From NCBI RefSeq assembly GCF_004010195.1, contig NC_057755.1, positions 5,025,643 through 5,089,642 of the forward strand: DNA of 64,000 bases, in the 5' to 3' direction. The notes below the pieces were generated by a model. The model searched no databases. It was not told where the DNA came from and worked only from the letters and a program-made list of their open reading frames with translations. Each line of letters opens with the position of its first letter. Within the stretch, counting starts at the first letter, position 1. The translations under genes and the position numbers were made by a program. The DNA comes from Chiloscyllium plagiosum (Eukaryota). Shown piece after piece: positions 7,520 to 55,899 of this stretch.

Positions 7520-8160
7520 ACTTTCAAGGTCCCCATTTGCCCTGGATGGAGCAGCTACAACAACAGTCAAGCAGCTGATCACCAACCAGGACAAAGCAGC
7601 CCCCTCTTGATTGGCACCGTATCCTCAAACATCACCTCCCACCCCACCGACACTCAGTAGCAGCAGTGCGCACCACTTACAATATGCAGCACAGAAATTC
7701 ACCAAAGATCGTCAGGAAGCAATTTCCAAACACACACACACAATTACAACGAGATGGAAAATGGTTCTGCTGTCTATCTCTGGTCTCGTTGATTCTCTCC
7801 TTTGCTCTCACCTTTCAATATATTCTGGACTCGACTGGTCACTAAAATGTGTCTGACTGTCAGGGCATTGGGCAACAGAATTAAAGCGAATGGCAGATGC
7901 ATGAGGACGCCATACCATTGTAAGTTTCCTTCGAATTCTCTCGCCATTCCGACTGTGAAATGTATCACTGTTCCTGAAGTGTAGCTTGTTCAAAGTCCCG
8001 GAATTCCCTTCCTCACGGCATTGTGGGTGAACACAGAGCACAAGGACTGCAGCGTATCAAGAAGGCAGTTCACTCTTGTCTTCTCATGGGGTGGCAACTG
8101 GTGACGGGGCAATAAGTTCTGACGCAACCAGTGATGTCCACATCCCGTGAGAGAATTGGA
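7520..8160 (+). mobile_element. LINE 3' end (CR1-like family with a ggcaataaatgct...cacatccc tail), interrupted by the GPCR fragment
   Basis: Same family as 25810-25945. The tail is also seen at 16425-16480. Confidence 0.65.
7765..7897 (-). pseudogene. Isolated GPCR TM5-ICL3 fragment inside a LINE 3' end
   Basis: LPFALILLPNALTVRHILVTSRVQNILKGESKGENQRD matches the same segment of copies A, C and D. Confidence 0.85.
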
Positions 8161-8217
8161 AATAGCATCCATAGTCTGGAAACAATCAGAACTTTCTTTT
8201 GGATTCAATTAGCGGTT

Positions 8218-9104
8218 TTATTTTTTCATAATGGCAGAAATTCATGTAACTAGGTATTTTACTGTGTTACTCTCGTTCAATCTGAACCTAGGCAACGTTG
8301 CTGCATAAATGGATATATTTATGCAACAACTTAAATTCTGGAGCATGTAACCAGTCATACCTAAGGAATACAGGAAAGCCGAGTAATCATAAGGATGGGT
8401 TCCTTGAATGACATAAGAACTGTATAAGAAAGAGTAACCACAGGATTATGAAAGTCCCAGATTTAGTGAGGAGCAATATCACAGCCTTCCTTCTGCTCTC
8501 CATCTCACGGTCTGTGCAATTCTCTTCTTCGTTCTCACCTTTCAGCATCTGCTAGACTCGCCTTGTCACTAAAATGTGTCTGACTGTCAGAACAGAATTA
8601 AAGCAAATAGCAGTAAAGGGCGAAAAACTGTATCCAGCCAATCTAATACCACTCACCAAGTTTCAGTAAAGTAGCTTGATTTTGTTTTAAAGTAGAATGG
8701 TACATTGTTGATTATCAACCGACGTTCATATTGAAAATTGAAGGGGATGGTTTTCAAACAAAACAGGGTGCAGGTTGTTGCTAGAACCAGAGTTACATTT
8801 CTATCAGTGCAATATTTTGTTTTCAGCTTCTGATATCAAATACTCACAAATCTGTCAGAGGAGTAAGTGAGAGTGAAGCAGACAGATCAGACAGTGGCTG
8901 CATGCGACACAACCCCAATAACACTGCACACAGGAGTGATAGACACGACAGAATCTGAGCAGTAATAAAAGTGAAAATCTGTTCGTATAATGTCAGTGAT
9001 AATGGCCATCAGATCGGCAGCTGCCATAACCGCCAGGTAATGAGTCGTGCAAGGGGAAACACCACATTTTCCCCGGGAAAGGATAAACGTCACCAGCCAA
9101 TTAA
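8218..9104 (-). pseudogene. GPR139/142-like GPCR copy A, exon 2 (heavily disabled)
   Basis: After an AG acceptor (9105-9106) it reads (V)NWLVTFILSRGKCGVSPCTTHYLAVMAAADL...TPVCSV...DRFVSI*YQKLKTKYCT...GYMLQNLSCCINISIYAAT..RFR. It is collinear with the other copies and has several in-frame stops. Confidence 0.9.
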
Positions 9105-10311
9105 CTATGTAAGAAAAATGGGAAAAGACACAACAAAATTATTGATTATAAATTCCTCTGTGTCTTCCAGAGTGCAAAAGTAAAATTTTACTCCACCACC
9201 CAGTGCACTCTGTGTGTGGAAGTGAAAATGATTGGAATTGAATGAGTTTGAATTTCAAGAATTTCTCATTCATCTCAGATTGACCTATGGCCCAACCGCT
9301 CCAGAGTTTATGGATTTTGGACAGATACTGAACTCGTGATTCCTCCAATGAGAACAGAAGCAAGTTTGAGATTTTTCTGGATGAAAGGGAACAATTCAAA
9401 TGCCTGTGATAGTTTTTCACAGTCCTCAGGTCCAACGCTGGCCAGGTGCAGAACGCCAATAGAAACAGTCATCTCAACACAGACATAGGACTGTGTTATG
9501 AAAAACGGAAAAAATCCTAATTCTGCAAATCAGAAACAAAAAGGAAAAGCTCAGCAGCTCCTGTCAAGATGTGAATTCTCTGGCGATACAGGCGAAGGCG
9601 GAGAGAATTTCGTAACGGATGGTAGCTGGATGAAGTTTTACAAATCAAAGCAGGATGCAACTTCCTCAATTCCTTTGTTGTTACTCAAACAAAGATCTCA
9701 AAATGAATATTAACAACTGCTCCCTTTGTGGATGAGAGCTCCCAACCACTTTCACATTTTGCTTCTGGATGTGCTACGTCACATTGCTGCTGAACAGTCT
9801 GGTCCTCATTCTTAGACCATGCTGCCTTATTATCAAATCATCAGCCAGTGGAAATCGCTAATATTTTCCTGTCTTTTCCAGTTAATTACTTCTGGGATTT
9901 TTCACAGATCACACTTCAATCTTCTAAACAAGCCTCATTTGTACAACAAAACATAAATTGCTCAGCAGGACTGGCAGCATCTGTGGAGAGAAAGGAAACT
10001 TACCGTTTCGGATCCAGTGACCCCTTTTCAGAAGTAACTCGCTTTATCTCTCCTATTACCTTCAAACTCTGTGAAACTGGATCAGATGCGACAACATTGA
10101 TATCAGATAATGCTGCAGTAGCAGTGAAGTTGGGAGTCTCAGTCAGCGGAGAATTGTACCGAGAGTGCCACTCAGTGAATTACTGTCACTGTTGCGGTGT
10201 CTGGATAAGGCTGCCCAGTCAGTGAACTGGAGATGTTATTGTTCAAAAGGTAAAACCAGACAGCAGATCAGCAGCAGATTAAAACAAGTTCAATTATCAG
10301 AATGTCCACAC

Positions 10312-10378
10312 CAGGAATACCAATAAAAGCAAGAGTGCTGTCGAACACCTTCTCCACTTCATTAATTGGTAAATTATT
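10312..10378 (-). pseudogene. GPCR copy A, exon 1 (start codon lost)
   Basis: 67 nt reading NNLPINEVEKVFDSTLAFIGIP+G, followed by GT (gtgtgg). Length and phase match exon 1 of copies C and D, but there is no ATG. Confidence 0.75.
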
Positions 10379-11148
10379 TCTCCGTGTGAAGTGATCTATC
10401 ACTCCAGTCAGCTGGCAATCTCTTTGTTTGAAACTCTGAGCCAATGCATTTCCAGAGACATAGTCTTCTACTGTATCGAAGCTCCTTGGGGAAATCGAGG
10501 TGACAGCATTACTCAGCTTTGTTACTGTTTAACAAATTTCAGTAAATGACTAAATTCATTACAATAATCAGTTTAATCTCTAAATATGAAGTGGTGTTGC
10601 TGCTCAGAACATCATAACGGAATAACAAAAGCCGAATCGGAAATCTGCCAGCAATAAAGCTGTCAAATCAAACACCATGAGCCCTTTCCCAGATCACAAA
10701 TCACTTTAGCAGACTAGGGGTACATAACCATCCTTGTACAATACGAGCCACTGTTATTCTATTGTAAGGGGCAGGGGTGCAGAACCAGGAATGGGTGACA
10801 GTTCAACAATTTGAGCATTCTGATGTCATGTAGAACATGCTGCCAGGGATTAGACCAAGATATTTACAGAAAATGTTCTCTGTTCTCTGCACTGGAATCG
10901 ATATTCTGAGGCAGCGATTAAGCTCTTTTTACACTTTCTGCGTATTGGCTAACAGCTTTGTAATGACTGCATGCAAAGATGCAGCACGGCAAAAGGATAC
11001 TTGTGTCCAGGATCCCTGTGGAATGACCAACAAGACACGTGGTGTGTGCAGATTGGATCCTGTGGGTCCAACCTACAATATTGGTGCTGTTCAAGTGAAA
11101 CCATCAATTTGTGACTTACTGGAAACCACATATGCACACGCATGTGTG

Positions 11149-11152
11149 CACA

Positions 11153-11215
<63 letters not shown>

Positions 11216-11220
11216 ACACG
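11149..11220. repeat. (CA)n microsatellite
   Basis: Long near-perfect array. Confidence 0.95.
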
Positions 11221-12444
11221 TGCACACGCATGGAAGTACATACACACAGACCTGGGAATGGACTATTCACTAATTTCACTGGTAAAATCTTGTTTGATAA
11301 CGTTCACCAGGAAGAAATGCAAATCATAATAGATCCAACAAAGGCACAGCTACTGTAGTGGTTTCAGTCCCGTTTTATATGATTACATTTGCACGTGATC
11401 TGTAGAATAATGAAATGAGGGACACGCCAATATGAGAAAAAACCCATGTCAGCAGTTAATAGACGAGAATTGATCTCGTCACAGCATATGGGGCAGGAAT
11501 GTTACTGGTCAATAACCTCAGTTTGGATAACTGGGATAATAAACCCAGAACTTTGGCCCAACAAGTCAAATGAACCAGTGAAGCACTGAATTATAAACAA
11601 TCAACAAGAGACTACAGGATAACTACACAGAATGAGGCTAATCACCACGATGGTGGAGAGTCACGCCAAGATGATTAACGGGGTGATGGAATAGCTGAGG
11701 GCACAGCTCAGGCAGGTTAGCCAATGGAAGGTCCCATCCTGGATCAGTGACAAACAGCGTGAACAATCTGTTCCAAGAGAAACCCCTCACTAACATCTCT
11801 TACTGTCAGTGACAGCAGCTCACCGAGGTCGGGGTTACTGACATCACGATGAGACACTGACCGTGGTGATAGTCATTCCTATTACCCTGAGGGGCAAAGC
11901 TGGTTTGGAGTCAAGAATGTCAGACTTATATGAAAAGGGTAGTTGTTTGGGTTACCATGGCGTCCTCCCATCTACTGCGGAGAGACAGGGGATATAAACC
12001 GGGGTCAGTCCGAAGTAAATGTGAACAAACGGGCCATTCCACTATATGTCCAGAGGTTACCATTCATGAAATCGGCTCCTCTCACATCAAGCTGTGGGCC
12101 AATTTCTCTCACCTTGATCTATGTTGGGATATTGTTGCTCTGATTGCTGCTGGAAATGACAGATATTCCAAAAAATTGTTACGATCATTATGAATAATCC
12201 ACAATCAGGGGCTAGAAGATAGATGGAGCACTATGGGTAATCACTTTATTTTTATTCATTCATGGAAGCAGTAATGAGGCAAAAATATAAGGATGGATTG
12301 GCAAAAGGCATCCATTGTTGTTGATACAGGGCTGCAAAACAAGTCAAGATATTTGCTTCAGTGATCAGCACCTTTCATTTATTTGATTCAACCAGAAGTA
12401 CATTACTATGAACATATCGAAATTTGCATCACGAGTTTGGAGCT

Positions 12445-12675
12445 GAAAATGTGTTGCTGGAAAAGCGCAGAGTTCATGCAACATCCAAGGAGCAGGAGAA
12501 TCGACGTTTCGGGCATGAGCCCTTCTTCAGAAATCTATTTCTGAAGAAGGGCTCATTCCCGAAACGTCGATTCTCCTGCTACTTGGATGCTGCATGACCT
12601 GCTGCGCTTTTCCAGCAACACATTTTCATCTCTGATCTCCAGCATCTGCAGTCCTCACTTTCTCCCATAACTAGT
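12445..12675. mobile_element. Penelope-derived palindromic element with two opposed hammerhead motifs
   Basis: Inverted arms of about 90 nt (12445-12533 and 12537-12628) around a 3-nt loop. Each strand reads CTGAAGA-agggctcat(g/t)ccc-GAAACGTC. Confidence 0.8.
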
Positions 12676-13204
12676 TTGGAATTTATGTTCAGATCCGGAA
12701 ACAGAATTTCTAACCTCAAATTGAGGGTTCCCGTCAGTTGTGCGTCTATTATGATGGACAGGGCATTAAACAACACCTCGTCCTGTTGTCCTAGAAATGA
12801 ATGGGGAATAGACACGAATGGAGAAAATCAGAGCCGCAATATTCGCACCAACGTTGCAGTTGAATTAGACATATGCATCACATTGAACATAGGAGATCAT
12901 TCAGCTCTTTGAGCTTCACACCTGACTTTGCTCCACATCGCTTAAAATCTATTTACAAAAATGTATTGATCTCAAGTTGAAATTTATCAATAGATCCAGC
13001 ATTCACTGTCGTTTCTGGAAGAAACCTCTCAAACCCTTCGTGTGCAAAAATCCTTCATAATAGTCTGGCCCTGATTCTCAAACGATATTCCCTCGTCCGA
13101 AAATCCCTAAACAATGGAACAAGTTTATCTTTCTCTGCTCTGTGTTATTTTCCTTTTAATGTCTGGGAGACATACACACTGAAGAATCTATCCCTAAATG
13201 GATC

Positions 13205-13540
13205 ATACAATCCCTACACTGGTGATAGAGGCCATTTGGCCCAACCAAGAGCACTCTGCCCAGATCTTTATCCCAAGCCATTCCTGTAACCCCATATTTA
13301 GTGCAGCCAATGTGCTTCGTCTATGCACCCCTATCACGACGGACTAATTTAGCAAATCCAATCTACCTAACTTTCACGTCTTTGGACTGTGGGAGAAATC
13401 TGGAGTGCCCTGACGAAACGTACTAACATGGGGAGAATGTGCAAACTCCACAGGAACAGTTGCCTAAAGGTAGAACCGGACCCCAGTCCCTGGTGCTGTG
13501 GGGAGCAGTGCTGACTACTGAGCCACTGCACTGCCTCACG
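13205..13540 (-). mobile_element. tRNA-derived SINE, decayed
   Basis: Core tttggactgtgggag...gggagaatgtgcaaactccaca shared with 48630-48951. Confidence 0.8.
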
Positions 13541-14329
13541 AGTAATGCACTGATTTTTGCACTTGCCCTCATTTTCTCCTGATATAATGTCAGTCACACC
13601 CAACAAATTCTTCTTGTCGTGTTAATTCCTCACGTTCACCTCTATGATTCTGCATATTCCTGTCCAGATCATTTCTTGCTTTCTTACTTACCCAGCTCAG
13701 ACTGACCTACCGCACTACCCTTTCCTTCCTACCTGTTTTTTTAGAAACTACTCATGCCCCACAATATTTCTGACATTCTTTCATATTCCGGTCACTGAAG
13801 ACCAAGAGAAAGACACACGCCCATACGGTTATCATGAACTGAGAATGGTAAAAAATGCATTTTCTCTTTGAGTCCTGTCTGCAGAATGAACACTTTCAAA
13901 AGAAAATACCGACCTCCCTCAACACTCCTGCCCTAAATCCTCCCCGACAGCCTGTCAGAATAAACACCATTTACTGTTTTTGCAGTTCTAAGGAAGGGTC
14001 ACTCGACTTAAAAAATTAATTCTGTTTCTCTGTCTGCAGGATTTGCCTGACCTGTTGAGTTTCTCCAAGGCGCTCTGTGTTTAATTCAGAAGAAAATTCA
14101 GTTTCAGAGAATGTCACACACAAAATACATGCACTAGAACCGATTCCTGGTGACTGATCATTTTCACAAGAAGAACCACTTTCAGTCTGAATGTGAAGCA
14201 CGCATGCAAAGAACTGAAGATTGTTGAAATCTGAAATGATAACAAGAGAGCGCTGGAGAAACTCAGCAGGTCTGGCAATGTCAGTGGACAGAGAGAAACA
14301 AAGTTAACGCTTTGACGTTTGTGTAAATA

Positions 14330-15090
14330 GAGTCACAATGATGTACAGCACAGAAACTATCCCTTTGGTCCAACTCTCTCATGCCGAGTAGATATCCTAA
14401 CCTAATTTCCTCTCATTTGCCAGCACTTGACCCACTTCCCTCTTAACCCTTCCTATTCATATACTCAATTAGATGCCTTTTAACTATTGCAACCATATCA
14501 GCCTGCACCACTTCCTCTGGCATCACATTCCATACATATACCACCCTCTACCTGAAAACAAGTTGCTCCTTACGTCCCTTTTATGTCTTTTCCCTCTAAC
14601 CCTAAAGCAATGTCCTCTAGTTATGGACTTCCTCACGCCAGGGAAAATACCTTATCTATTTATCCTAGCCATGCATCTCATGATTTAACAAATTTGTATA
14701 AGGTCACCCCTCAACCTCCGATGCTCCAGTAAAAATAGCTCCAGCCTATTCAGCCTTTCCCAATAGCTCAAACCCTCCAATGCCGACAACATCCTTGGAA
14801 ATCTTTTTTTGAACCCTTTCAAGTTTCACATTATCCTTCGGATAGAAACGAGATCAAAATTGCGCGCAATATCACAAAGTGCTCTAACCAACGCATTGAA
14901 CAGCCTCAAAATTACCTCCTAACTTCTATACTCAATGCTCTGACCAATAAAGGAAATCATACAAACGCCTTCTTCACTATCTCATTGACCTGTGATTCTA
15001 ATTTCGACGAACTATGAACCTGAACCCCAAAGTCTCTTTGATCAGCAGCACTCCCAGGACCTTTCCAATAAATGCAAAAGTCCTGCTCTG
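14330..15090 (-). mobile_element. CR1-type LINE 3' fragment abutting the 3' end of copy B
   Basis: Reverse complement of the family at 23170-24035. Confidence 0.85.
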
Positions 15091-15149
15091 ATTCTCGACA
15101 AAGTATGGAAGATTCTCATTGCACACAGAGCACGGTAAGAAATTGACCT

Positions 15150-16078
15150 TTAAGGAGGAAACAAAACTGTGCAGTGTTTATTGAATGCATTGACCATTGT
15201 CAAGAAGAGCGTCCAAGGGAATTCAAACAGTTTATGTAGCTCGGACCTAAATTTGGTCTGCGTCATAGCATAGATGCATGTGTTTGTACAAGAACTCGAA
15301 TAAGTGAGCAGATACCCAGTCTCAGTGGCAATGTATGAGGAGGAGTTATAATATATTTGGTCAAGCACAGCCAAGGTGTTGACCAAAGAAGTCACTACAG
15401 ATGTCAGATAAAGCAGTATAAAACTGCCCAACACCATAAAGAGAAGAAGAATCGAGTTTCTTCGGGTTTTCATCTCTGGATCGCTCTTGGTTTTAGCCTG
15501 CTGAGCCCAAAGCCTCCTGCGACGAATATTGCTTCCTACAATGTGTCTGGCAGTCAAAGCATTAAATAGTAATATCAAAAAGAAAGGAATCCATGTAACT
15601 AAAAGATTTTGCAACTTTTCATAGCTCGCACCTACGGTTGGTTTGAGAAAATACAAACTGGGATAGAACCCCCAGTGAATATTGTTAAGTGTGCATTGGT
15701 GTTCACATGCAAACCAAAATGGAATGTTCTCTAAGTCCACCAGCACCGAGACAATTATTATGACCGTGAATGCAGTTCTTACTGTGCTATACTTGGTTTT
15801 ATGCTTCGGACAGCATATAGCTATAAATCGGTCAAAGGTGAAGCAGGTTGTGTACCACACTGACAAATATACATTAGTGCAGCTCATGTACAATATCAGA
15901 TTTATGACCACAGTGTAAGAGAGGAATGAATATGGGAACCGTCTATTCAGAATTTGAAATAAAAAAACATTGAGCATGGCCAGCCGATCTGCTGTCACCA
16001 TCGTTAGCATGTAGATTGAAATGCATTTAGAAAGGCTGCAATTTCCTCTCAAGAGAATCACAGTTGCCAGGAAGTTTG
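15150..16078 (-). CDS. GPR139/142-like GPCR copy B, exon 2 (open frame; splice acceptor reads AT)
   Basis: The 303-aa ORF 15150-16061 extends upstream as (A)NFLATVILLRGNC. It has hydrophobic TM segments, FTFDRFIAICC (DRY-like), NALTARHI, DPEMKTRR and CTNTCIYAMTQTKFR (TM7/helix 8). A polypyrimidine tract and CTAAC branch point are present, but the acceptor is AT at 16080-16079. Confidence 0.9.
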
Positions 16079-18244: not shown

Positions 18245-18314
18245 CTGGAACACCAAAGGGTGCCAACACAGGATAGAAGATATCCTTTATCTGTATAATT
18301 ATCGGCCGCACCAT
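18245..18314 (-). CDS. GPCR copy B, exon 1
   Basis: ATG at 18314 gives MVRPIIIQIKDIFYPVLAPFGVP+G, then a GT donor. The 70-nt phase-1 exon joins exon 2 in frame (GVP-A-N). Confidence 0.85.
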
Positions 18315-18387
18315 TGTTTAGAAGAATTCACATTTATGCCTTGTATCCTTTCGCTGAGAATGGATGCACGATTCACAAAGGCTTCCC

Positions 18388-18394
18388 TTTTATA
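18388..18394 (-). promoter_or_regulatory. Candidate TATA box of copy B
   Basis: TATAAAA 74 nt upstream of the ATG, at the same spacing as in copy D. Confidence 0.45.
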
Positions 18395-22506: not shown

Positions 22507-23006
22507 NNNNNNNNNNNNNNNNNNNNNNNNNNNNNNNNNNNNNNNNNNNNNNNNNNNNNNNNNNNNNNNNNNNNNNNNNNNNNNNNNNNNNNNNNNNNNN
22601 NNNNNNNNNNNNNNNNNNNNNNNNNNNNNNNNNNNNNNNNNNNNNNNNNNNNNNNNNNNNNNNNNNNNNNNNNNNNNNNNNNNNNNNNNNNNNNNNNNNN
22701 NNNNNNNNNNNNNNNNNNNNNNNNNNNNNNNNNNNNNNNNNNNNNNNNNNNNNNNNNNNNNNNNNNNNNNNNNNNNNNNNNNNNNNNNNNNNNNNNNNNN
22801 NNNNNNNNNNNNNNNNNNNNNNNNNNNNNNNNNNNNNNNNNNNNNNNNNNNNNNNNNNNNNNNNNNNNNNNNNNNNNNNNNNNNNNNNNNNNNNNNNNNN
22901 NNNNNNNNNNNNNNNNNNNNNNNNNNNNNNNNNNNNNNNNNNNNNNNNNNNNNNNNNNNNNNNNNNNNNNNNNNNNNNNNNNNNNNNNNNNNNNNNNNNN
23001 NNNNNN
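22507..23006. other. Assembly gap (500 N)
   Basis: Run of N. Confidence 1.
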
Positions 23007-25440: not shown

Positions 25441-25952
25441 TCTGTTGAATTGTTACTGAGCTGAGGAGAAAGACCAGGTATTTAATTGTCAAATATTTCC
25501 TGATGCACGATTCCATTTAATTTAAGCATATCCATCTCAAATATTTGATTTTTTGGAGACTAACAGAGGATTCCAAGTAGGTAGGAATTACTCAGTAGGA
25601 AATTCCATTTTCATAGACAATTCCCTTGTATTGTGCTACAATGGGGAATCTGCAGTTTCCCAGCTCAACTATTTCCCTACAGTAGAATAAGGAATCCCTA
25701 TTTGGGGCGTGAAGAAACTACCCAATTGGTTGGGTGAGTCAAGTTCGCGAAACTCGACGCCAGCTAGGGACAAAGTAGCGCCTGCTTTATCTGCAACACA
25801 AAATTAAGCATCCATTCCATCCATCAGCAGTCGCATCAGTGTGCACCATCTACAAGATGCACTGCAGCATCTCACCAAAGATCCTGAGACAGCACCTTCC
25901 AAACCACCGACCACTTCCATCTAGAAAGTCAATGGCAGCAGGGAAACGGGTT

Positions 25953-25991
25953 TGCAGTTTTCTCAGTGTAATATTTTGTTCTCAGCTTCTG
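25953..25991 (-). pseudogene. 39-nt GPCR ICL2 fragment
   Basis: Reads QKLRTKYYTEKTA versus QKLKMKYCTEKTA in copy C, and the nucleotides closely match 30541-30578. Confidence 0.6.
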
Positions 25992-26296
25992 CAAGTGGTC
26001 ATTTATCTTGCTCACCCACACATTGCTCCTGTTCAACCCCCTTTTTAATCCTTTCTATGTCCTATTTACAGTTTATTGTACCATCAAACTTTGATGTTGT
26101 CAATTGTTAATGATCCCATCAGCTCAATCATTGATTGAGGTGATAAATTGCTCTGTCTTGAGCAATGGCCCTTGTGGCACCCATTACTGCAAGTCTAATA
26201 TCCTGAAAATGAAATGTTTATTCCCACTCTCCGTTTTTTGGCCTTTATCAATCTTCACACTAAGTCCCTAAATCCTCATCACTACCTGGGCTCACG

Positions 26297-29948: not shown

Positions 29949-30847
29949 TTATTTCTTCAGTAATTTAATAATTGCTGTAAAGGGATATTGCAACATGTTC
30001 AGGAGTTGCTCTCGAAACTTCTACTGAGTCAACCCATACATGCAGGTATTAATGCATCAATTTGCATCGAGCAACATCCATCCAATTTGTTGAAATATAT
30101 ACTCAGCCAGTTTGTAATCCGTAGGATCGGATCCTGTAATTTTAGAATATAAGAATTCTACAACTTACACTGACCACAGAACGATAAAGTTGCCCAAAAT
30201 GGTTAAAAGTAAAATCACAGACTTCCGTCTGCTCTCCATCTCTGAGTATCCGGCATTCTTTCCACTGCTCTGACCTCTCAGTCCCTTATGTACTCGACTA
30301 GTCACTAAAATGTGTCAGACTGTCAGTGCATTAATCAATAGAATTAAAGTGAAAGGAAGTATGGGGGTTAAAATCCGATCCAACCAATCAAATCCCACCC
30401 ATCCAGGATCAGTATAATAACTTAGTTTCACACTGCAGAGCCATGGTACATTGTTGATTATACTCAATGGCTCAATTGTAAAGTAGTATGGGCTGTTTCT
30501 TAAACAGAGCAGGACGCAGGTTACTGTTAGAACAATGGCTGCAGTTTTCTCAGTGCAATATTTCATTTTCAACTTCTGGCAACAAATGGCCACAAATCGA
30601 TCAAAAGAGAAAACAACTGTGAACCAGACAGAGCAGTCTGTCGTTGCAGAGGCGAGTACAGTTTTGAGGCTGCACACAAGAGCAATATCCAGGAATGTCC
30701 CTGGGAAATAATGATAACTGATGTGCCACAAAAAGTTGATTAAAATACTGACTGATAGATCTGCTATTGCCGTGGCCACCAGGTAGCGAGCGGTACCAGA
30801 TAGCCCACACTTTCCGTTACACAGGATGACAATTGCCATTAAATTAG
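29949..30847 (-). pseudogene. GPR139/142-like GPCR copy C, exon 2 (nonsense-disabled)
   Basis: AG acceptor at 30849-30848, then (A)NLMAIVILCNGKCGLS...DCSVWFTVVFSFDRFVAICCQKLK...NALTV*HILVTSRV...EMESRRKSVILL. It has four in-frame premature stops (TGA at 30315-30317, then TAA, TGA, TAG) before the terminal TAA. Confidence 0.92.
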
Positions 30848-31746: not shown

Positions 31747-31813
31747 CAAGAATTCCAATAACAGCGAATATCATATAATATAATTTCAGCACATCATCAA
31801 TTGGACGGGACAT
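31747..31813 (-). pseudogene. GPCR copy C, exon 1 (donor GT>GG)
   Basis: MSRPIDDVLKLYYMIFAVIGIL+G, 67 nt, followed by GGAAGT instead of GTAAGT. Confidence 0.85.
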
Positions 31814-31901: not shown

Positions 31902-31915
31902 ATTATAGCCTGTGA
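31902..31915 (-). promoter_or_regulatory. Candidate TATA-like element of copy C (TCACAGGCTATAAT)
   Basis: About 89 nt upstream of the ATG and nearly identical to the copy D motif. Confidence 0.4.
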
Positions 31916-39875: not shown

Positions 39876-41558
39876 CACCTGACTGTGTGTATGTGTACAT
39901 ATGTGTGTACATATGTATGTTTCTGTGTGTGTTTCTTTGTGTGAGTGTGCATGTTTCTCTGTATGTGTGTATGTGTGTGTTTCTCTGTATGCGCGTGTGT
40001 ACATACATGTGTGCATGTTTCTACGTTTGTGTGTGTGTGTGCATTTTTCTGCTCTGCACCCATTCACAGCAAATTATGGCAACTTAGAAATTTCAGTTTA
40101 TATGCAGAAGATTACTTGGGGGAGGGGAATGGAGTAAACGATATGTGGTGAGAAAGCCCAATTAGAGAGAAAAACAGTTGAACAGAGAAAGGTGAAATTA
40201 ATGACAGAGGACACGAAGGAATGAATGGAACGGCAGTCCCATCGGTGACAGGAACAGAACTTCTCCAAGGTTGACATGCTTGGAAGGGATGTGGCAGTGA
40301 GTTAAATACTATACCGACTTATCACTCACGCCTTACACAATTTCCCCCAAAGCTATCTTCTGCATATAAACCGAAATTGTTCTACTACCATCAGTTCTGA
40401 GGTAGAGTCACTCAATCCGATACGTTAACTCTGATTTCTCCCCACAGATGCTGCGAGACTTGCCGAACATTTCCAATAATTTTTGTTCTTGTTTCAGTCG
40501 TAGGATTGGCGATTGGACCGTCAATATAAAAAAACTTTCCTCATTTCTTCGGATCAAATTATCTCCTGTTCTTGGCATTGGACCAAATTCTGAAAGGGTT
40601 TGCAGAAGGATCAGGAAACAGGTCATCAGAGTCTGCTTAGGGTTTCAAAGAAGACTACTCCATGTGCCATGCCCAATTGCAGCATAACAGAGTGTGCAGA
40701 CGGCCCCACGTGACAGTGTGTTAGCGTGAGGACAGCTGTGATACTTACACCGGAAATTTACATATCTCTACGTGATAGACGCCTCAATGTATAGGGATCA
40801 GGAGGGCAAACTGTCAGGCGTTGAGTTCCCTAACGAGAGAGTTTGAGGAGGAGAGAATTTACAGAAGGGAAGGTAGTTACATTAAGCTTTATAAATCAAA
40901 GCAGGGTGCATATCCCTAAATTCCTTTGCTTACCAAAAGAAAACAAAAATACGATATCAGATTGAAAACGAGCAACTGATCCGTTTGTGTGAGAGATTTG
41001 CAAACCTCTCCGATCGTTTGTTTCTGATGTGCACAGTAACATGTTTGCTGAACGGTCTGACCTTAATTCTCAGATATGTTCACTCATTCAACAGTCCCTC
41101 AACAATTGAAAACCTCGTCTTTTCGTGTTGATACATTGTGGGGCATAGTACAGATTGCGCCTTAAAATTCTAAATGCTTTTGAAAATAGGCCTCTTTTGT
41201 ATACGAAAAACAGAAGTTGCTCAAAAGGTCAGGCAGCACATGCAGAGAGATAGTACAGTTAACATTTCAGGTCCGGTGACCCGTCTTCAGAAATAACTTG
41301 CATGATCTCTCCTTATACAACTGAAGGAATCCGTAAGAAATGACAGAACACAAAAATCAGAAAATGCTGCAGCAACAGTGAAGTTGGGAGTCTCTTTCTG
41401 TGGAGAATTGTAACGAGAATGCTGCTTGATGAATTGTTATCACTGTTCCGGTGTCTGGCAGAACAGTCAGTAACCTGGTGACATTATTTTTCAGAAGGTA
41501 AAACTGGAGAGCAGATCAGCACCAGATTAAAGGAAGTTCAACAATCGTAATAGCACAC

Positions 41559-41625
41559 TAGAGGAGCCCATGAAAGTAAGGCTGGTGTCGAATACTTTCT
41601 AAACTTGATTAGTTGGTCTGAGTAT
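41559..41625 (-). pseudogene. Orphan GPCR exon 1 (paralogous to exon 1 of copy A)
   Basis: 67 nt reading ILRPTNQV*KVFDTSLTFMGSS, then gtgtgc. ATA stands in place of ATG and there is an internal stop. The flanks align with 9560-10710. Confidence 0.7.
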
Positions 41626-42369
41626 TTTTCTGCACGAGATGTTCTGTCCCTTCAGGCAGCTGACAAGCTCCTTGTTTGAACCTCTGAGCTGATACAATCC
41701 CAGAGACTTGCCTTATACTGTGTGAAAGCACCTTGAGGAGATCAAGGTTACAGCATTTCCCAGCTTAATTACTCTTTTTCAAATTTCTTTAAATGAACAA
41801 GTTCATTACAATAACACGTTTAATGCCAAATTATGAAGGAGCTTTGTTGTTCATACATAGTGATGAAATAACAAAAACAGAATCTAGGATCTGCCAGCAA
41901 TAACATTGTCCACTCAAACACCATGAGCTCCGTCCCGAGATTACAAATTATTTCAAACAAAGCTGCATAGAGACAGTTTATTCCAAGTGCAAAAGTATGT
42001 CTCAGCGCTGTCTTTCTGTGTTCTGGTGTAGGAGCTTCCCCATTACACAAGAGCATTTAGTTGATTGAAATGTGATTCCTCTCACACACTGAATGTGCGT
42101 ATTGCTGCCAAGGTCAGCAATTATTCCCGATCCCCCAACACCCCCAGTTGGAGTCAAGGACCAATTGATGAGAACATGCTGCCTTTACAAAGGGGCTGAC
42201 AAACAGCTTTCAAAAGTAAATACATCATTGACTTCACTCTTCTTGTCAATGTTCAACTAGATGCATCTCCGACCTGACCCTTATTTGTATTGCCTATCCG
42301 GATCCATCACTGATCTTGGGATGAATCTATCAGGAAATTATTACCGTTTTAGCTTTCAGTTTTCATGTT

Positions 42370-46899: not shown

Positions 46900-47130
46900 T
46901 CCGAAAAAACATGTTTACAGAAATCTTTCAGCTCGGCTATGCGTTTTACAGAGACACTGTTGGGTGCAGTATCATTCCTTTTCCAATCACCAATGCGGAC
47001 AATCAGAACAACGCCAAATTGCATTTCAGGGAAACCTTGGAAGCATCCTTGTGGAGCTCGACGTGACCATGGAGAACCGGGCAGAGAACACGTCCACTGG
47101 ATTCCAAACTATACAAGACGAGTACTAATT
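46900..47130 (+). mobile_element. Possible RTE-clade LINE C-terminal relic
   Basis: KLHFRETLEASL resembles the RTE motif KRFKDTLKASL. The match is short and decayed. Confidence 0.35.
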
Positions 47131-47576
47131 GGTGAGGATGTTCATTTCGAGTTTGCTATTCGATTGAGTCACTGACCCCACTGAAAGAATAGTTTTTTTG
47201 AATAATCAGATAGAACGCAAAAAAAGTTTCCTGACCTGGCAGGAAATATGCGAACAGCCAGGTCAGTTAAGTTGTTTATTCCCAAACTTGGCTGCTGTCC
47301 CACCCCGAGTCTGACATCCATTCCGCATCATCACCATCTACAGTTGGTGTCAATCTCATTTTGCTCATCAGGACACCAATGCTGATGGTGATCCGTTGAT
47401 GAAGGTTTATGGTAATTATAACATTCATGCAGTAGAACCACCTGGACTCATTTCTGGTCTGCCCTTGAATTACATTTGTTTCGATATTTTCTTCGGAGAT
47501 GTTACTCAAAACATCTGGAGCAGGTTGGATTGATGTCGTCCTCCTTTCTCAGAGTTAGGGACACCACAAGAGCCCC

Positions 47577-48475
47577 CTAGCATATTTTCTGTTTATTGAT
47601 TAGCAGAATAATTGGTGTGAATAGATACATAACAGTACTCTGCAACTGCTCTCTGAACCTGGACTGAGTCGCCGTGTAAATAAAAGTGTTTGTGCAGCAA
47701 TTGATGTTCTGCAGAATATACCCAACTTGTTCAAAAATATAAAATGACGTATTGTCAAAGTAAGATGAAATTTTAAAGCAATATAGAACATATACAAGCC
47801 ACAAAAGTATGAAGCTTCCGGAAATGGCGAAGAGTAAAATCACAGATTTCCTTCTGCTCTGCATTTCTGGGTCACTGGTATTCTTGCCCTTGTGGACACT
47901 CCTCAGTCCTTGTCGGACTCGACTTGTCAATAAAATGTGTCTGACAGTCAGTGCGTTGAACAATATCATTAACACAAATGGGGGTATTGGCGTTAAAATT
48001 GTATCAAATTGAGAAAATGCTAACCACCCAGGCTCAGTATGAAAACTGGGCTTCACAGAGCAGAACCATGGTACATTGTCAATTAATTCTGCAGGTTCAT
48101 ATACAAAGTAGAAAGGAATATTTTTCAATAATAGCAAAATGAATGTCATTGCAAGAACAAAACCTGCAGTTTTTTCTGTGCAATATTTGATTTTCTTCTT
48201 CTGGCAGCAGATGAACATAAATCGATCAAAGCAGAAAGTGACAGTGAACCAGACCGAACAATCTGTGGCTGCACAACTGAGGACACTGAGAATGCTACAT
48301 ACAGGGGTCATGTCCAAGAAACACAGTGGGAAATAATAGCCATTCATGTGTCTCAATATAACTTAAATGATAATGAGCAGTAGATCCGCCACTGCCATAG
48401 TAACGAGGTAACACGTGATGCAGTTGCTAAGACCACACTTTCCCCGAGACAGGATTGTAATGGCCGTGATATTGA
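47577..48475 (-). pseudogene. GPR139/142-like GPCR copy D, exon 2 (single premature stop)
   Basis: AG acceptor at 48477-48476, then (V)NITAITILSRGKCGLSNCITCYLVTMAVADLLLIII*VILRH, continuing into the 259-aa ORF (DCSVWFTVTFCFDRF, NALTVRHI, DPEMQSRRKS, NCCTNTFIYTATQSRFREQ). The only lesion I see is TAA at 48363-48365. Confidence 0.92.
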
Positions 48476-48629
48476 CTGCAAAAGCAGGAGATGAAAGAAA
48501 GGAAATTAATCAGAAACACATTTCCTTTCATGAGCCTAGACATTTTGTGTTGAATGTAGCACCCATAAACAAAACATTGAACGTGATCAGATGTTTAGGA
48601 ATGTCAGTCAATCGTTCACATCTTCTCAA

Positions 48630-48951
48630 TTAGATTAGATTAGATTAGATTACTTACAGTGTGGAAACAGGCCCTTCGGCCCAACAAGTCCACACCGCCC
48701 TGCCGAAGCGCAACCCACCCATACCCCTACATTTACCCCTTACCTAACACTACGGACAATTTAGCATGGCCAATTCACCTGGCCTGCACATCTTTGGACT
48801 ATGGGAGGAAACCGGAGCACCCGGAGGAAACCCATGCAGACACGGGGAGAATGTGCAAACTCCACACAGTCAGTTGCCTGAGGTGGGAATTGAACCCGGG
48901 TCTCTGGCGCTGTGAGGCAGCAGTGCTAACCACTGTGCCACCGTGCCGCCC
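48630..48951 (-). mobile_element. Full-length young tRNA-derived SINE (HE1-like) in the intron of copy D
   Basis: 5' GGGCGGCACGGTGGCACAGTGGTTAGC (A box), GGTTCAATTCC (B box) and a (TCTAA)4 tail. Confidence 0.92.
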
Positions 48952-51178
48952 TAATGACCTGTTTGGATTATGAATTGAATTAGGTGAGGGAGAGTTTAGC
49001 GCATCACCATGGGAGGGGGAACACATAATTTTTATGTAGACTTCCCTGAATAAAACAATTATTATAGTATTAACATTCAAGTCACCATAGTCTTACCAGA
49101 CCATTGAGGTGCGCTCTCACGACAGAGAGAGATGACTGGTGGTGATTTAACCTTAGCGCCACCAAGCGTCAGGTGAGTGAAGAGACTGGGACGGTGATCG
49201 CTTCATGTTAATCTCAGCTAGTGATGGTAATTCCAAGGGTACAGAGATTTAAGGAAAGGGTGCAAGTTAAAACAAGTATATCTGATCGTGGGTGTAGGGG
49301 TATGCAGGAAAGTACATAAACACCGAAACACAAAAACAAACATTAGGAGCAGGTATATACCATTTTGCCCTTTGACCCCGGGCAGTCATTCAATATGATC
49401 ATGCATGATTACCCAACTCAGTCCCCTGTTCCTTCATAACCATCAATATCTATTTGTTTCTACGATTCAAGGTTTATAATCCAACGCTTTCTTGAAACCA
49501 CACAATCTTTAGGTCTTCAATGATTTATCTAGTAATGAATGGCACAGGCTGTGGAGGAAGAAATTTTTTATCATCTCAATCCTGTATGTTTTACCGTGTA
49601 TCTTTAATCTGTGACCTCTGGATCTCCATTCCATGGTCACTGGGAACGTCCTTCTTGTGTTTATTGTGAACAGTCCTGTCAGGAATTTACAATGTCCTAT
49701 GCTAGTTCCCTCTAATTAATCTGAACGCCAGCAAATACAAAACGATCTGACTATTCTTGAGTGGAAGGCAAGGTTGATTTAATGAAGTCAAGTGTATGAA
49801 AAGTCTTTTAAATAAAGATACTGCAGATGGTCTGAAATGAAGGAGAAATTCTTAGAGAAGAGAAACCAGGAGGTGCCCAGAGACGATCGGTTCTCATGGG
49901 AAATTCTCCAGTGTGCCAAAAAAAACAATTCTACACGAGAGTGTGGACCATAGGAGTGTAGGAAATATCTCTCAAGTCTGTTTCACCATTCAATAGTGAA
50001 CTTATCGTCTAATTTCACGTGTCTGCCTTTAGCCCATATTCATTTAAACGCATGGTTCATGAATATATATCTAACTCAGACTGAAAATTTAGAACATCTG
50101 TTTGTCTAAGAGAGTTTCCAAACTTCTACCAGCCATTGTGTGTCAAAATGCTCCTGAACGTTCGTCCTGATTGGTCTGGCTATCATTCTCACACTATAAC
50201 CCTAGTTCCGAATCACCAAACATTGTAAGTAGTTTATGGTTATCCACCCTGTCTTTTTCCGTTATTATCTAGAAAGAGACTTTGATCAGGTCATGCCTTC
50301 ATGTTCTAAATTCCAGAGGACACAGACTTAATTTCTATAATATCTCCTCGTAACTGAACCCTGGAACAATACGTAGATATCGTTCTTGCAGACCTACGTT
50401 TTCATCTTTCCAAGTGCAATCTATCCTTCCTAAGGTCTGGTCCTCAGATCTGCCCACTGTGCTCAAAATAGGGTCTAACCACTCTGTCTATTTACAACAG
50501 CCTTCAGTTGGCTCCCTCCACCACTAACTCTGCGTTCTGTCATCGCAGCCCAGGCACACAAGAACCTGCCAACATTTCTTCAACACCTACTGCCTCTGAC
50601 CTAAGTATTTCCCTTTCGCAGTACATTCTGGCCCTGAAAATGCCAGGCACAAGTCTCAGAATCTTACAGGGTAGATCCTTTAACAGATATAAAAGCGCAG
50701 AGGTCCTTCACTCAGGGTTACAGTGGAAAGTTTCATGAGTACTCGACCAAGCTCATATACACGACACAGCAGAATAAGAAAATCATGACTGTTGACCATG
50801 TAAGAACTTAAGCCAAATAATGAGAGAGGAATTTAACGGGAAGAGTGACTGAAGGGATCAAAGCCATTAAGTGTCAAGTGGAGAGTGATTCAGTGTAGGA
50901 CGATCAGTGTTACCTTACCCAGAAATAGCCTTTCGCTGTCTGTCCGGATACAATGGAATACAGGAAGAGAATGAGGAGGCTTTGAACGGATAATGTAAGC
51001 AATTAGGATGGAGTTTAAAATCTAGTTCTCAATCGTCATAATATCAGGATTACTTCCGATGCCATATGCTAATAAGAGTGGGAATATGGGGATCGTCCAG
51101 ATGAATGCATGACTGAGGAGCTGTTGCAGGCGAGAAGGATTTATGTTTTATTGAAATCTCTTCTGGGGTAGAAGTGCT

Positions 51179-51500
51179 GGGGCGGCATGGTGGCTCAGTG
51201 GTTAGCACTGCTGCCTCCCAGTGCCAGCGTCCCAGGATCGATTCCAGCCGCGGGCGTCTGTCTGTATGGAGTTTGCACGTTCTCACGTTCTCCCCGTGTC
51301 TGTTTGGGTGTTCTCCATAGTCCAAAGATGTGCAGGCCAGGTGAATTGGTCATGCTAAATTGCGCATAGTCTTAGGGGCATTAGTCAAGGATAATGTAGG
51401 ATAAGGGAATGGGTCTGGTGAGTTACTCTTCGGAGATCGGTGTGGACTTGTTGGGCTGAAGGGCCTGCTTCCACACTGTAAGGAATCTAACCTAATCTGA
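51179..51500 (+). mobile_element. tRNA-derived SINE inserted in a CR1 ORF1 relic
   Basis: A box TGGCTCAGTGG, B box GATCGATTCC and a TCTAA tail. The flanks resemble 63170-63240. Confidence 0.85.
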
Positions 51501-52504
51501 CCTGATTGGAAGGACAATTCGACCTGAACTAGAAGGGAACCAATGTCATGGTGGGGAGATTTGCAAGAGCTGCTTGAGTAGACTTAAACTCAATAATTGG
51601 TAAGAGGTCGGGGGGGATGGGTTGAGGAAGTGATCGTGAGAAAAGTGCTAAGTCTGTGGCTGGTACTGTTGAGAAGAGGAGCACGTTAAATCGTTAAGTC
51701 AGGAAGGAAAAAGGACAGCGCACGTTTTAATACTGATAAATCACACTTCCTTCATCATAATATAAGACATCTGACAGGTAAGGCAGATGCACACAGTGTG
51801 GCTGGGTACATGGGACTGGGAGCATCACAGGAATTTTAGAAACATGGTTGAAAGCAGGGCAAGATTGAAAGGCGAACAGAGCCACAACAGTTTGGAAGGG
51901 TTCTATGATTACTGATAAATCAATGATTACTATCACTCACATCTTCAAGGTGTGGTATTTTGTATTGCTATGAATTCAAATATACTGGGACTTTACCACA
52001 CTCGCATCTACAGTGTGTTACACAAGTGCTTGGAATCACCTGAGCCAGCCAGCTAGTGCTTCCAGTTAAACCTGTTTGTCTGTAACCCGGTGTTGCGCAA
52101 TTATTAATTTTGTACACCCCAATCCAACACCAGCTCCTCCTCATCATGGCTACTGAACACAATGATGTTCGAATAGTGATTTCCTCCAAAGAGTGGCCAT
52201 TTGACCAAATGATCCAGTTGGTGAATTAACTTTAAAAACTTGCACGGTGGCACAGGATCTGAATAATACATGGAATTCTCTCCATGTTAGGAAGCACACG
52301 CAGTATGTTTTAACATTACATTGTGTTCTTCCTTCGCCTGGGCAATTGTCCACAAATCAAAAGTCCACAGTGCTGCTAGGTGTCGAAGTTTCGGAAAATT
52401 GGTCAAGTGTGTGATACACAAGATCAGATCATCAGAAATTGAAATCAAGCAAAACAGTAGAGTTAATCTAGAGAGATTATCTTTCAGGATACAGCAAATA
52501 AATG

Positions 52505-52730
52505 GGAATGCTGGATATCTGAAACAAAAACTGAAGCTGTGGGAAAATCTCGGCATGTCTGGCAGAATCGATGGTGAGAGAGAAACCAGAATTAACGTTT
52601 CGAGTCAAGTGTCACTTGTTCAGAACTCAAAGAAAGATCCTGATGCAGTGTCACTGGACTCGAAATGTTAACTCTGCTTTCTCTCTCTCCACAGACACGT
52701 ACAGACTTGCTGGGTTTTCCACACATTCTG
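52505..52730. mobile_element. Decayed Penelope-derived palindrome
   Basis: Opposed arms ...gagagaaaccagaattaacgtttcgagtc / gactcgaaatgttaactctgctttctctc with eroded CTGAnGA/GAAA boxes. Confidence 0.65.
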
Positions 52731-52799
52731 CTTGTGTTACTTGTTTGCTTAAATTCTTTGTTATGACTCAGAAAAAGTTTCAAGTTGGCTCAGTTAGAT

Positions 52800-53120
52800 T
52801 GGACAGCGAGATGGATCAGTGCTTAGCACTGCTGCCTCATAGCGCCAGGGACCCAATTACATCCTCGGGCTACTGTGTGTGTGGACATTCTCCCCGTGTC
52901 TGCACGGGTATCTTTCGCCTGCTCCCGTTTCCTCCCACAGTCGAAAGATATGCAGGTTGGGAGGCTTGGCTTGCTAAATGGCCCAAAGTGTCCAGGTGGA
53001 TTAGCTGTGGGAAATGCAGCGTGATCGGGATAGATTGGGGGTTAATCTGACCGCCATGCACTTTGGTGAGTCTCTGTGGATGTGTTGGGCCGAATGGCCT
53101 GTTTCCACACTGCAAGGAAT
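52800..53120 (+). mobile_element. tRNA-derived SINE, decayed
   Basis: Homologous to 51179-51500. Confidence 0.75.
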
Positions 53121-53635
53121 CGGTAGAATTTCTGGTTTATAATGTCGAGGTATATCAGAACAGTGAGCTCAATTCCCTGTCCTGTCTGAGGTTACTACGA
53201 AGTACTTTCCTCTTCAATCTCTCCCCTTACCTCAGATATAGTGAGCATTGGGTTCAAACACTACCAGACAACTCTCTCTCCCTCAAGTGAAATAACAGCT
53301 CGTATCTTTGGTGAGAACATGCTGATTAGCACTGAACAAGATCATGAAATAATACATCAATATGTGACTGACCATGAATCCGACAACAAAGACAGTAATC
53401 AAGTAAAAGCTGAAAGAACTGCGGACGCTGGAAATGACAAACTAAAACGGAAAATGTTGGAAAACTCAGCAGGTCTGGCAGCAGCTGTAGAGAGAAAGCA
53501 GGGAATACGTTAAGTTTGATTTCTGTCGCAGGTGCTGCCAAACCTGCAGAGATCTTCCAGCAGTTTCTGTTTTAGTAAAAGCAGTAACCAGTTCGCCAAT
53601 AGATTCACAAACCTTAACCAAATATTGTTACTTAC

Positions 53636-53702
53636 CAGGAACACCAATGATGGCAATGATTGTGTAGACTATTTTAGAAATACTGTGGAATACGCCAAGC
53701 AT
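53636..53702 (-). CDS. GPCR copy D, exon 1
   Basis: MLGVFHSISKIVYTIIAIIGVP+G, 67 nt, with a perfect GTAAGT donor. It joins 48475 in frame across an intron of about 5.2 kb. Confidence 0.88.
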
Positions 53703-53778
53703 TTTTCTCCGTGAATTATTGTGTGGTATCGATTCCAAATGAATTAAAATTGAGGCATGACATTATTGTAGCCTGGGA

Positions 53779-53791
53779 TTTATACCTGTGA
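53779..53791 (-). promoter_or_regulatory. Candidate TATA box of copy D (TCACAGGTATAAA)
   Basis: 77 nt upstream of the ATG. Related motifs lie upstream of copy C and the orphan exon. Confidence 0.5.
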
Positions 53792-55899
53792 GAAGTCTAT
53801 AGGGAATTTACAGTTGTAATACCTCTTTACTTTGGATCCAAGAAACAAGAATACACATTGCTCAAAAATAAAAAAAAACAGATTTGAGAATTGGGAGCAG
53901 TTCAGGTTTCAGTAACATAATACAAAGTATTAATTAAGTGGGGGGGGGGGGATACAGAGCGAGGGTGAGCGTGAAGGGAACATTAAAAAAACATAGCAGA
54001 GAAATATCAAGAGAAAAGAATTAATAAAGTGGAATGGAAGTCTCTCACATCTAAAGATAGGGGAATTCGAACTGCGCACAAACAGGTGGCAAATTCATGA
54101 AATACATATTTTAGTTCTCTCTTAACAACAGAGGGCGTAAATAAAGCCCAAGTAATACTGGGGACAGAGTCCAGTGAGATGAAGGAGCCATAGACTCTCT
54201 TCAGCCCATTGCGTTTGCACCTGCGAACAAACTACCCAATGTTTGCACTAGACATATATTCCTGCATTCAGCCCGTAGCCTTGAATGATCTACATTTCAA
54301 ATGGATAACCCAATACGTTTTTTTAAAAAAATGTGAGGTCTGTACTCCACTATCCTTTTAGGTCGTGCATTCCTGACACCCACCGCACTCTGGTTTCCCT
54401 GATTCCCCTTTAAACCTCATGCTTTTCACTTTAATATCATCTCCTCATACCCCATCCCTTGTTACTGACCCTTCACTAAGCGAACAACCGCTTGTTATCC
54501 ACCTTACCGTGACTCTCATAATCTTAAACAATTTATTCAGGACCGCCTCAACCGTCTATGCTTGAAATAGAAAATTAAGGACATCAGCATTATTCGGGAA
54601 ATGGTTTTGGGTAAACGCTAATAAAGGCTAATAAAACCTCGGCCAAAATAATCTACGTTCCAGAATATTTCAGGAATTGTCCCGAGTAATATTGGATGCG
54701 TTCATGATCACCTGCCAACGTTCTATCAACTCTGGAACATAAGAAGACAAGGACATAAGAGCCAGGAGGGGATGTGGGTCATTAAGCCCTTCGAGACGGT
54801 TCCACCATCGATAGATGAGCTCAAGTTGACCTCATTTACTTTCCTGTCCCCTTTGCATATCCCCTTAAGTCATTGCTGATTAAAAACGTTTCCATCACCT
54901 CGTTAAATTTGATCAATGTTCTGCATCCACCGCACTCTGGGGGAGTAAATTCCACAGTTTGACGACCTTTGAGAGAAGGAAATTGTCCACATCGCTGTTT
55001 GAAATCTGCTGTTCCTTATGGTAAAAGTATGACCTCTACTCTTGACTGCCCCACATGAGGTAACATCCTCTCGACGTCTACTTCGCAAATCCCCGTTAAC
55101 ATCTTATATTCCTCAATTAGATCTCCTCTCATTCTTGTAAACTCCAAAGTTTTTGGATCAAACCTGTTTAATCTCTCTTCACAGGACAGTTCCTGCGGAT
55201 TGAAGGGTCACCGATGTAATTCGAATGTTTAACGTGAGGAAAGAGCAAAATAAAGATCATTTGGCCTGACATCACAATCGGAACTAATGCCGTTTTGGAT
55301 TTAAAAAAAAATGTGTTTAAACTTCATTCCACCTCAGACATCCATAAGGCATTTCAGCTACTTATCTGAGGTCATATAACAGGATCAAACAGGGTACATG
55401 CAGGAAGGCTGTTACAGAACCAGACGTCAAAATTCAAGTATTTGTTTTTTCCCCGTTTCTTCATTTAGATTGGAAATATAGAGAATAGTGAACATCAAAG
55501 TGTAAATTTGTTCTCTGTTATGAAGAGAGTATGGATCTGAGCGGCTTCATTAACAGTACACAAATAATTATTTTGTGAAAAAAATATAATTTTACATATA
55601 ACTCTGAGTGTTGGGCCCTGCTAATGCCTCAACTAAATGCCAGTAGTTTGATTGTAAACACAGAGAATGGTGTACGTCAAGGCTTCAGTTGTTCTCTGTA
55701 AGTAAAGTGTGTATAGATGTGAAGAGCTACATTAATTGTAGATGTACATAAAGATGCATCTTTATCAAGAACGTAAATTTTTGCAAAATTGTCATATGAT
55801 AGTTTATAGAACCAAACTACTTCAGTGGCTATTTATGTACATGAAAACATTTTTATGAATAAAGTATGTTTCTGAAATTAAAACTAAATGCAGAGTGTT

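Follow-up and report, generated by a model that had tools for sequence, protein, structure and literature searches.

Which receptors do the crowded and mostly broken genes of a stretch of shark DNA descend from, and what might the family to which they belong sense? The question is raised by 64,000 nucleotides of the Chiloscyllium plagiosum genome (contig NC_057755.1, positions 5,025,643 to 5,089,642), here called the window, in which an earlier note, made from the letters alone, had seen a tandem cluster of GPR139/142-like receptors and a candidate for an expanded sensory family. In sharks, rays and Callorhinchus, the members of this family carry automatic RefSeq names: "probable G-protein coupled receptor 139", "neuropeptides capa receptor-like" and "vasopressin V2 receptor-like". 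Our answer is tentative, somewhat short of probable: what the window holds is the decayed part of an array of rhodopsin-class receptor genes in birth-and-death evolution, and the family likely senses varied external chemicals in sensory cells that express EBF, likely not those of the nose only.

Full-text literature searches, whose scope left out subscription papers, found no description, phylogeny or function of the family. It goes unmentioned in the accessible parts of PMC11979771, PMC10620051, PMC8455134, PMC13621994 and PMC12208981, and the small supplementary files, available in part, of PMC11057056, PMC10529500, PMC13188829 and PMC11806052 gave 0 matches. New here are a sister gene in amphibians and sturgeon, the rejection of membership in the GPR139/142 group, selection at the level of sites, a promoter signature, and marker-negative transcripts. 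According to the accessible part of the whale-shark genome paper (PMC8455134), cartilaginous fishes have relatively few G-protein coupled receptors (GPCRs); Syed et al., in the available part of PMC10116579, explain the small olfactory repertoire of sharks by sensitivity being favoured over discrimination. An automatic name has concealed a family of roughly the size of the mammalian odorant receptor (OR) family. If it is sensory, the way in which sharks discriminate odours can be tested directly; if its role is immune, the family would amount to a surveillance repertoire of GPCRs, encoded in the germline and larger by far than those known. The conserved sister gene in Xenopus offers a tractable route to the ancestral ligand.

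The content of the window was established by six-frame translation, tblastn and a family hidden Markov model (HMM). Together with blastn, these confirmed the four two-exon units (copies A to D), the orphan exon 1 and the two clear fragments that had been seen in the letters, all on the minus strand. In each unit, a short exon 1 of about 22 codons is followed by a phase-1 intron and then by exon 2, whose roughly 900 bases encode the protein from the first transmembrane helix (TM1) to the C-terminus. Each of the four units has an inactivating lesion, and none is demonstrably intact. In the 464 kb around the window, tblastn yields 36 clusters, of which two small ones are probably retroelement matches; 24 near-full-length exons 2 are found there, 10 of them open and with an AG acceptor. 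The block formed by copies A and B, and the D unit, are each repeated nearby at 65-82% DNA identity, introns included: the array thus expands by cassette duplication.

On the scale of the genome, a 27-base degenerate motif of the family has 1,320 exact matches, versus 1 for its reversed control. In the neighbourhood of the window, 11 sites match this motif; 5 of them are intact copies, out of 10 intact ones present there. On contig C8, a sample of 60 copies was drawn from the first 100 motif matches: 13 are cut by gaps, and the 47 free of gaps divide into 15 intact and 32 broken copies, some of the breaks possibly being assembly errors. As a rough figure, the genome carries 500-1,200 intact copies of exon 2, a count in which unplaced contigs may include allelic duplicates. 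The best 146 of 7,718 candidates are all at least 52% identical to copy D, and 89 of these 146 lie on contigs C37-C51, the window itself being on C46. In the protein database, 1,530 proteins match at E ≤ 0.001. The 120 matches listed are all from sharks; members also occur in rays, skates and the chimaera Callorhinchus, and there are subfamilies common to sharks and rays. The picture of a clustered family in birth-and-death evolution, rich in pseudogenes, is supported by the motif matches and by the 10 open copies among 24, and the copies genome-wide are far from few.

A young subfamily, with about 90% DNA identity, is scattered along contig C8 from 0.3 to 45 Mb (L124-L183), every few hundred kb and on both strands. 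Its copies usually adjoin assembly gaps, and the scatter may be a scaffolding artefact. Processed retrocopies were rejected as an explanation of the dispersed copies: most readable loci retain the splice acceptor.

Among solved structures, the best match of the family profile is human GPR139 (E = 3e-15). The Chiloscyllium plagiosum genome has one match for GPR139 (C21, L031) and one for GPR142 (C24, L075), the latter assigned from a 56%-identical gene taken as GPR142. A clade uniting the family with GPR139/142, a group represented in the test by the shark GPR139 and the shark GPR142 only, is rejected by the approximately unbiased test (p = 0.000148, log-likelihood 53.5 lower). The identity of family proteins to GPR139 and GPR142, class A receptors for L-Trp and L-Phe (PDB 7vug, 9m42), is about 25-35%; unlike those two, the family has the cysteine C3.25, and the residues F109, H187, R244, N271 and E108 vary in it. 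Shark GPR139 does share with the family a phase-1 intron before the TM1 Asn, but this intron is common to the wider clade, including GPR139 and the group called X below, and is thus not diagnostic. With both genes separate in the genome, the joint clade rejected, and a pocket that is not conserved, the members are distant cousins of GPR139 and GPR142, and the membership implied by the earlier note is abandoned. The true GPR139 has members of the family at a distance of 0.5-1.5 Mb, on contig C21 at 58.7-60.2 Mb, near the contig end; this is probably a coincidence of terminal clusters.

The nearest proteins from outside the cartilaginous fishes, in an exhaustive profile search, form three groups, X, Y and Z, which are three further GPR139-like vertebrate paralogues with automatic names only (P0232, P0258, P0231). 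Group X (e.g. XP_005988539.1) comprises sharks, coelacanth, ray-finned fishes, amphibians and reptiles, with a shark gene of its own, and no mammal or bird is among the 120 matches listed. Group Z (XP_063078741.1) has one shark and one anchovy member. Gene Y (e.g. XP_069092602.1) was found by a word-limited search in amphibians and sturgeon only, with one match per species listed and 66-74% identity among amphibians; none of the 119 shark genes scored is more than 37% identical to it. The shark genes of X and Z are at L032 (C26, 36.60 Mb) and L033 (C98156, 21.3 kb).

Copy A was excluded from the trees because of its frameshifts. In the IQ-TREE tree of 41 rows, the family is monophyletic with support 92/85; it joins Y at 100/99, then X and Z at 100/98, then amphioxus at 87/73. 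The best reading of these sequences is that the family is a chondrichthyan expansion of Y, and the trees do not nest it within a characterised receptor family. The lineage-specific system proposed for the window therefore stands as far as the huge expansion is concerned; the lineage itself is not confined to sharks, its sister gene being present in amphibians and sturgeon. Copy B, which had been singled out as a different subfamily, is one: no other row in the tree of 41 exceeds 44% identity to it, and in a tree of 142 rows it falls nearest to proteins of horn shark and stingray. According to the accessible part of PMC12208981, receptors for FMRFamide, MIP/sex-peptide and proctolin are relatives of the wider clade, and the Atlas neighbours agree with this kinship. 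The Pfam cut-off of the nematode chemoreceptor model Srw is passed by the anchovy Z gene and by two of four non-shark relatives outside X and Y.

Judged by their sequences, the proteins are class A (rhodopsin-like) GPCRs. The 7tm_1 model matches copies B, C and D and protein P0034 with 45-81 bits, for a cut-off of 30.5, and it is the only match of these four, the models for OR, TAAR, V1R, V2R and T2R giving none at E ≤ 0.01 or at E ≤ 0.1. In 115 family rows, the activation core is kept as follows: D2.50 in 114, R3.50 in 113, W6.48 in 107, N7.49 in 114, Y7.53 in 113 and C3.25 in 110. The motifs first noticed in the window are shared across the same rows (DRF in 101, NTxxY in 101, NALTVRHI-like in 63, DPEMxxRR-like in 74), but the change from NPxxY is no departure from GPR139, since GPR139 itself, like GPR142, lacks the proline.

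The pocket is another matter. That of GPR139 includes F109, H187, W241 and N271, from mutagenesis, and R244, from modelling (available part of PMC5430874). In the 115 family rows, the F is found in 17, the H in 24, the N in 9 and the W (6.48) in 107; at the position equivalent to R244, Arg is not among the seven commonest residues. Because this pocket is not kept, apart from W6.48, Trp/Phe sensing of the GPR139 type is unlikely to be a family-wide trait, and a screen of amino acids alone would be poorly aimed. Positions 3.32, 3.33, 5.43, 6.51 and 7.38 vary widely in the family rows, and are invariant in Y.

Selection was measured on the 13 intact close copies of contig C8, two of the 15 intact ones being dropped as too divergent. 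By parsimony, the ratio of nonsynonymous to synonymous rates, omega, is 1.13 over 85 extracellular codons and 0.29 over the remaining 213 (Fisher p = 2e-19); framework values lie at 0.14-0.29. A home-made test of M2a against M1a, in which branch lengths are scaled rather than refitted and gene conversion is only partly controlled, gives a doubled log-likelihood difference (2dL) of 246, with omega2 equal to 8.4 on 5.9% of sites. The signal is retained with per-segment trees (2dL = 170), and in none of five null simulations does 2dL exceed 4.5. All 14 sites with a posterior above 0.95 face outward, in extracellular loop 1 (ECL1), at ECL2 and the top of TM5, or at the top of TM6, ECL3 and the top of TM7. 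Several of them are three or four residues apart, and the label "pocket-facing" rests on alignment and helix spacing. The divergence of the extracellular loops, for which a site-wise analysis had been suggested, is supported by this result. In the older clade that contains copies C and D (26 copies), the signal is weaker (2dL = 16.8, omega2 = 2.0). Pairwise values for C8, 1.67 outside and 0.49 inside, are superseded, broken copies having been included in them.

The promoters were compared over 53 distinct upstream regions, forming 28 sequence groups, and anchored at a TATA-like box that precedes the ATG by 57-118 bases. The palindrome TCCCNNGGGA, taken to be EBF (O/E)-like, occurs with up to 2 mismatches at positions -28..-16 relative to the TATA box, with a sharp peak at -21, in 17 of the 28 groups and 33 of the 53 promoters. 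Shuffled sequences have it in 0.8-1.2 groups on average and at most in 6 (p < 0.0005), for a test interval picked after inspection and promoters that share ancestry; among background TATAAR sites, 74 of 1,655 (4.5%) have it. Homeodomain sites show no overall enrichment in these promoters (0.72 vs 0.61), the immunoglobulin-type octamer occurs in 0 of the 28 groups, and NF-kB, IRF and PU.1 sites are not enriched in them. As another identity for the element, a STAT site was rejected, with 0 of 28 groups; AP-2 fits 5 of 28. Sites for Lhx2 and Ebf are features of OR promoters and enhancers in the mouse (accessible part of PMC5608512).

Is the family transcribed? The query from contig C8 is contained in no indexed sequencing run on record as RNA. 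In X19, a raw poly(A) single-cell run of which 2% was sampled, 244 reads fall on C8 exon 2 at 85% identity or more, and 17 poly(A)-tailed reads end 32-34 bases past an AATAAA, where the genome has no A-run. These reads are sense transcripts of C8 paralogues or alleles, for one subfamily and in one library. Another run, X20, gave 0 reads on both queried stretches and counts as no test.

A second pile of X19 reads, at L126:4600-5025, lies on the opposite strand, over the 5' part and intron, and looks antisense or unspliced. It has GC-rich loose ends at 5008 (X19) and at 5013 (X1 and X6, contigs guessed to be RNA), for which no matching sequence was found in the DNA examined. This suggests that a spliced antisense transcript enters the receptor exon at L126. 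TRPC2 could not serve as a marker for want of its 3' exons: at L189 (contig C6, 117.80-117.82 Mb), where the gene lies, none past TM6 turned up in the 120 kb downstream, and they likely fall in an assembly gap.

How, then, is the family to be understood? In clustered birth and death, a short N-terminus, a variable pocket on a conserved core and a putative O/E-like promoter site, it resembles, as a repertoire, the OR, V1R, T2R and MRGPR repertoires of vertebrates and the srw chemoreceptors of nematodes. The receptor lineage is different from all of these, and the four family proteins have no Pfam match to them. In the mechanism that we propose, each intact copy would bind a different set of ligands and, by analogy with its relative GPR139, which is coupled to Gq, may signal through a Gq/Go-type G protein. 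EBF would drive the family promoter, and expression of the copies would be sparse, in chemosensory cells or sensory neurons, much in the manner of odorant receptors or MRGPRs. Sensory cells are ranked first because of the size of the family and its promoter. With more reserve, it may be conjectured that cartilaginous fishes carry an extra chemoreceptor family of about a thousand genes, derived from one conserved jawed-vertebrate receptor kept in amphibians and sturgeon, with its own TATA and EBF promoter, and with one or few genes expressed per cell, in olfactory and extra-nasal sensory cells.

Several observations weigh against a sensory role. No classical chemoreceptor model of Pfam (OR, TAAR, V1R, T2R or V2R) matches the tested proteins, and the extracellular omega, taken as a whole, is not significantly above 1 (p = 0.32). 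In the promoters, the interval for the EBF-like element was chosen post hoc, its assignment to EBF is tentative, and ancestry is shared; TGTTT(G/A) near -70 and TT(G/A)(C/T)AA near -35, taken to be FOX-like and C/EBP-like, are also enriched, in 9 and 8 of the 28 groups, and a homeodomain site stands beside the EBF-like site in just 4 of 28. EBF is also a B-cell factor, and it drives other neuronal programmes as well. In the catshark, according to the available part of PMC10116579, almost all olfactory neurons are microvillous cells of the TRPC2/Go type, which is associated with V2Rs; in its Table 1, the probe for the V2R co-receptor labels about 6 cells per mm, and every other V2R probe about 1. 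It is possible that there is room for another receptor family in this epithelium. Finally, s100z is a top marker of the catshark olfactory library (accessible part of PMC11979771), and the same X19 sample has only 2 reads on its last exon. Since X19 is nearly without s100z, its transcripts probably do not come from olfactory epithelium, and expression would not be confined to the nose.

Some of these points would fit a leukocyte surveillance repertoire, of B-lineage or myeloid cells, which would detect microbial or parasite molecules as formyl-peptide receptors or mast-cell MRGPRs do. This is possible, if still doubtful, and leukocytes are ranked a close second, given how strong the selection is and the probably non-olfactory origin of the library: an arms race fits the omega of about 8 at the pocket-facing sites of a young expansion, and the library with the sense transcripts has hardly any s100z. 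The combination of EBF-like, FOX-like, C/EBP-like and, weakly, E-box sites is known from B-cell and myeloid genes, but octamer, NF-kB, IRF and PU.1 sites are not enriched in the 28 groups, and a scale of a thousand class A genes has known precedents among chemoreceptors, not among leukocyte GPCRs. The reported absence of MAS1 and its relatives from cartilaginous fishes (PMC8455134, in its accessible part) may have left a niche open. It is unlikely that the ligands are endogenous or conspecific peptides, such as pheromones or signals of gametes or mating, forming a diverse family with which the receptors co-evolve. The kinship of the wider clade with FMRFamide, MIP/sex-peptide and proctolin receptors (available part of PMC12208981) and the Y pocket, invariant across amphibians as expected of a fixed ligand, would fit such a role; however, no ligand gene family was seen in the 464 kb examined, whose long open reading frames are family members, retroelements or simple repeats, and about a thousand receptors would need a matching diversity of ligands, which was not found. 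Least credible, and already largely refuted, is that most copies arose incidentally, as small chromosomes rich in repeats underwent segmental duplication, with few that matter. It would account for the lack of an intact unit among the four of the window, for the 32 broken copies out of 47 on C8, for multi-gene cassettes duplicated en bloc and for the 89 of 146 best matches on C37-C51, but not for a framework omega of 0.14-0.29 with positive selection limited to outward sites, for a promoter element at a fixed position across diverged groups, or for subfamilies common to sharks and rays.

We now turn to the individual copies of the window, all features being on the minus strand. Two fragments come first: a remnant of TM7 and helix 8 at 7088..7192 (family HMM, E = 0.0017), and a remnant of TM5 and intracellular loop 3 at 7678..7956 (tblastn; HMM E = 5e-15), which has a counterpart in the duplicate of the A/B cassette, about 190 kb away on the contig. 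Copy A is a pseudogene: its exon 2 (8215..9104, by tblastn and HMM) has frameshifts and many stops and retains the AG acceptor, and its exon 1 (approximately 10312..10378, by HMM) retains the GT donor and has lost the ATG. Upstream, the EBF-like palindrome remains with 1 mismatch (10483..10492), and there is no remaining TATA match. Copy B, of a distinct old subfamily, has an open frame in exon 2 (15150..16078), and the AG of its acceptor is lost: the acceptor reads TCTAT versus TGCAG in an 82%-identical paralogue about 190 kb off, and, as read from the sequence, using the next in-frame AG would delete 11 residues of TM1. The ATG and donor of its exon 1 (18245..18314) are intact; its promoter has a TATA at 18394, and the EBF-like site is absent at the family position. 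Between copies B and C are a 500-base gap of N (22507-23006), within a remnant of a long interspersed element (LINE), and a doubtful remnant of intracellular loop 2 at 25950..25994, seen by the HMM alone (E = 0.85).

Copy C is a pseudogene with 4 stops in exon 2 (29949..30847, by tblastn and HMM) and an exon 1 (31747..31813) whose donor GT is lost, reading GG; its promoter has a TATA-like box at 31907 and a degenerate EBF-like site with 3 mismatches at 31932-31923. The orphan exon 1, of the A type, lies at 41558..41626 in a 1.1-kb duplicate of the region of copy A exon 1, with a TATA at 41717. It has lost start, frame and donor and has an internal stop; it escaped the protein HMM and was recovered by a blastn search with exons of paralogues. 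Copy D has a single TAA in TM2 of its exon 2 (47577..48475), where four close paralogues have Glu. Its exon 1 is at 53636..53702, with an intron collinear with those of two D paralogues, and its promoter (53779..53805) combines an EBF-like site with 2 mismatches at 53805-53796 and a TATAAA at 53784. The remaining long open reading frames of the window, judged by eye, are retroelement remnants or simple repeats. Beyond copy D, at 56021-60645, lies a 2.34-kb tandem duplication of 96% identity, with LINE remnants.

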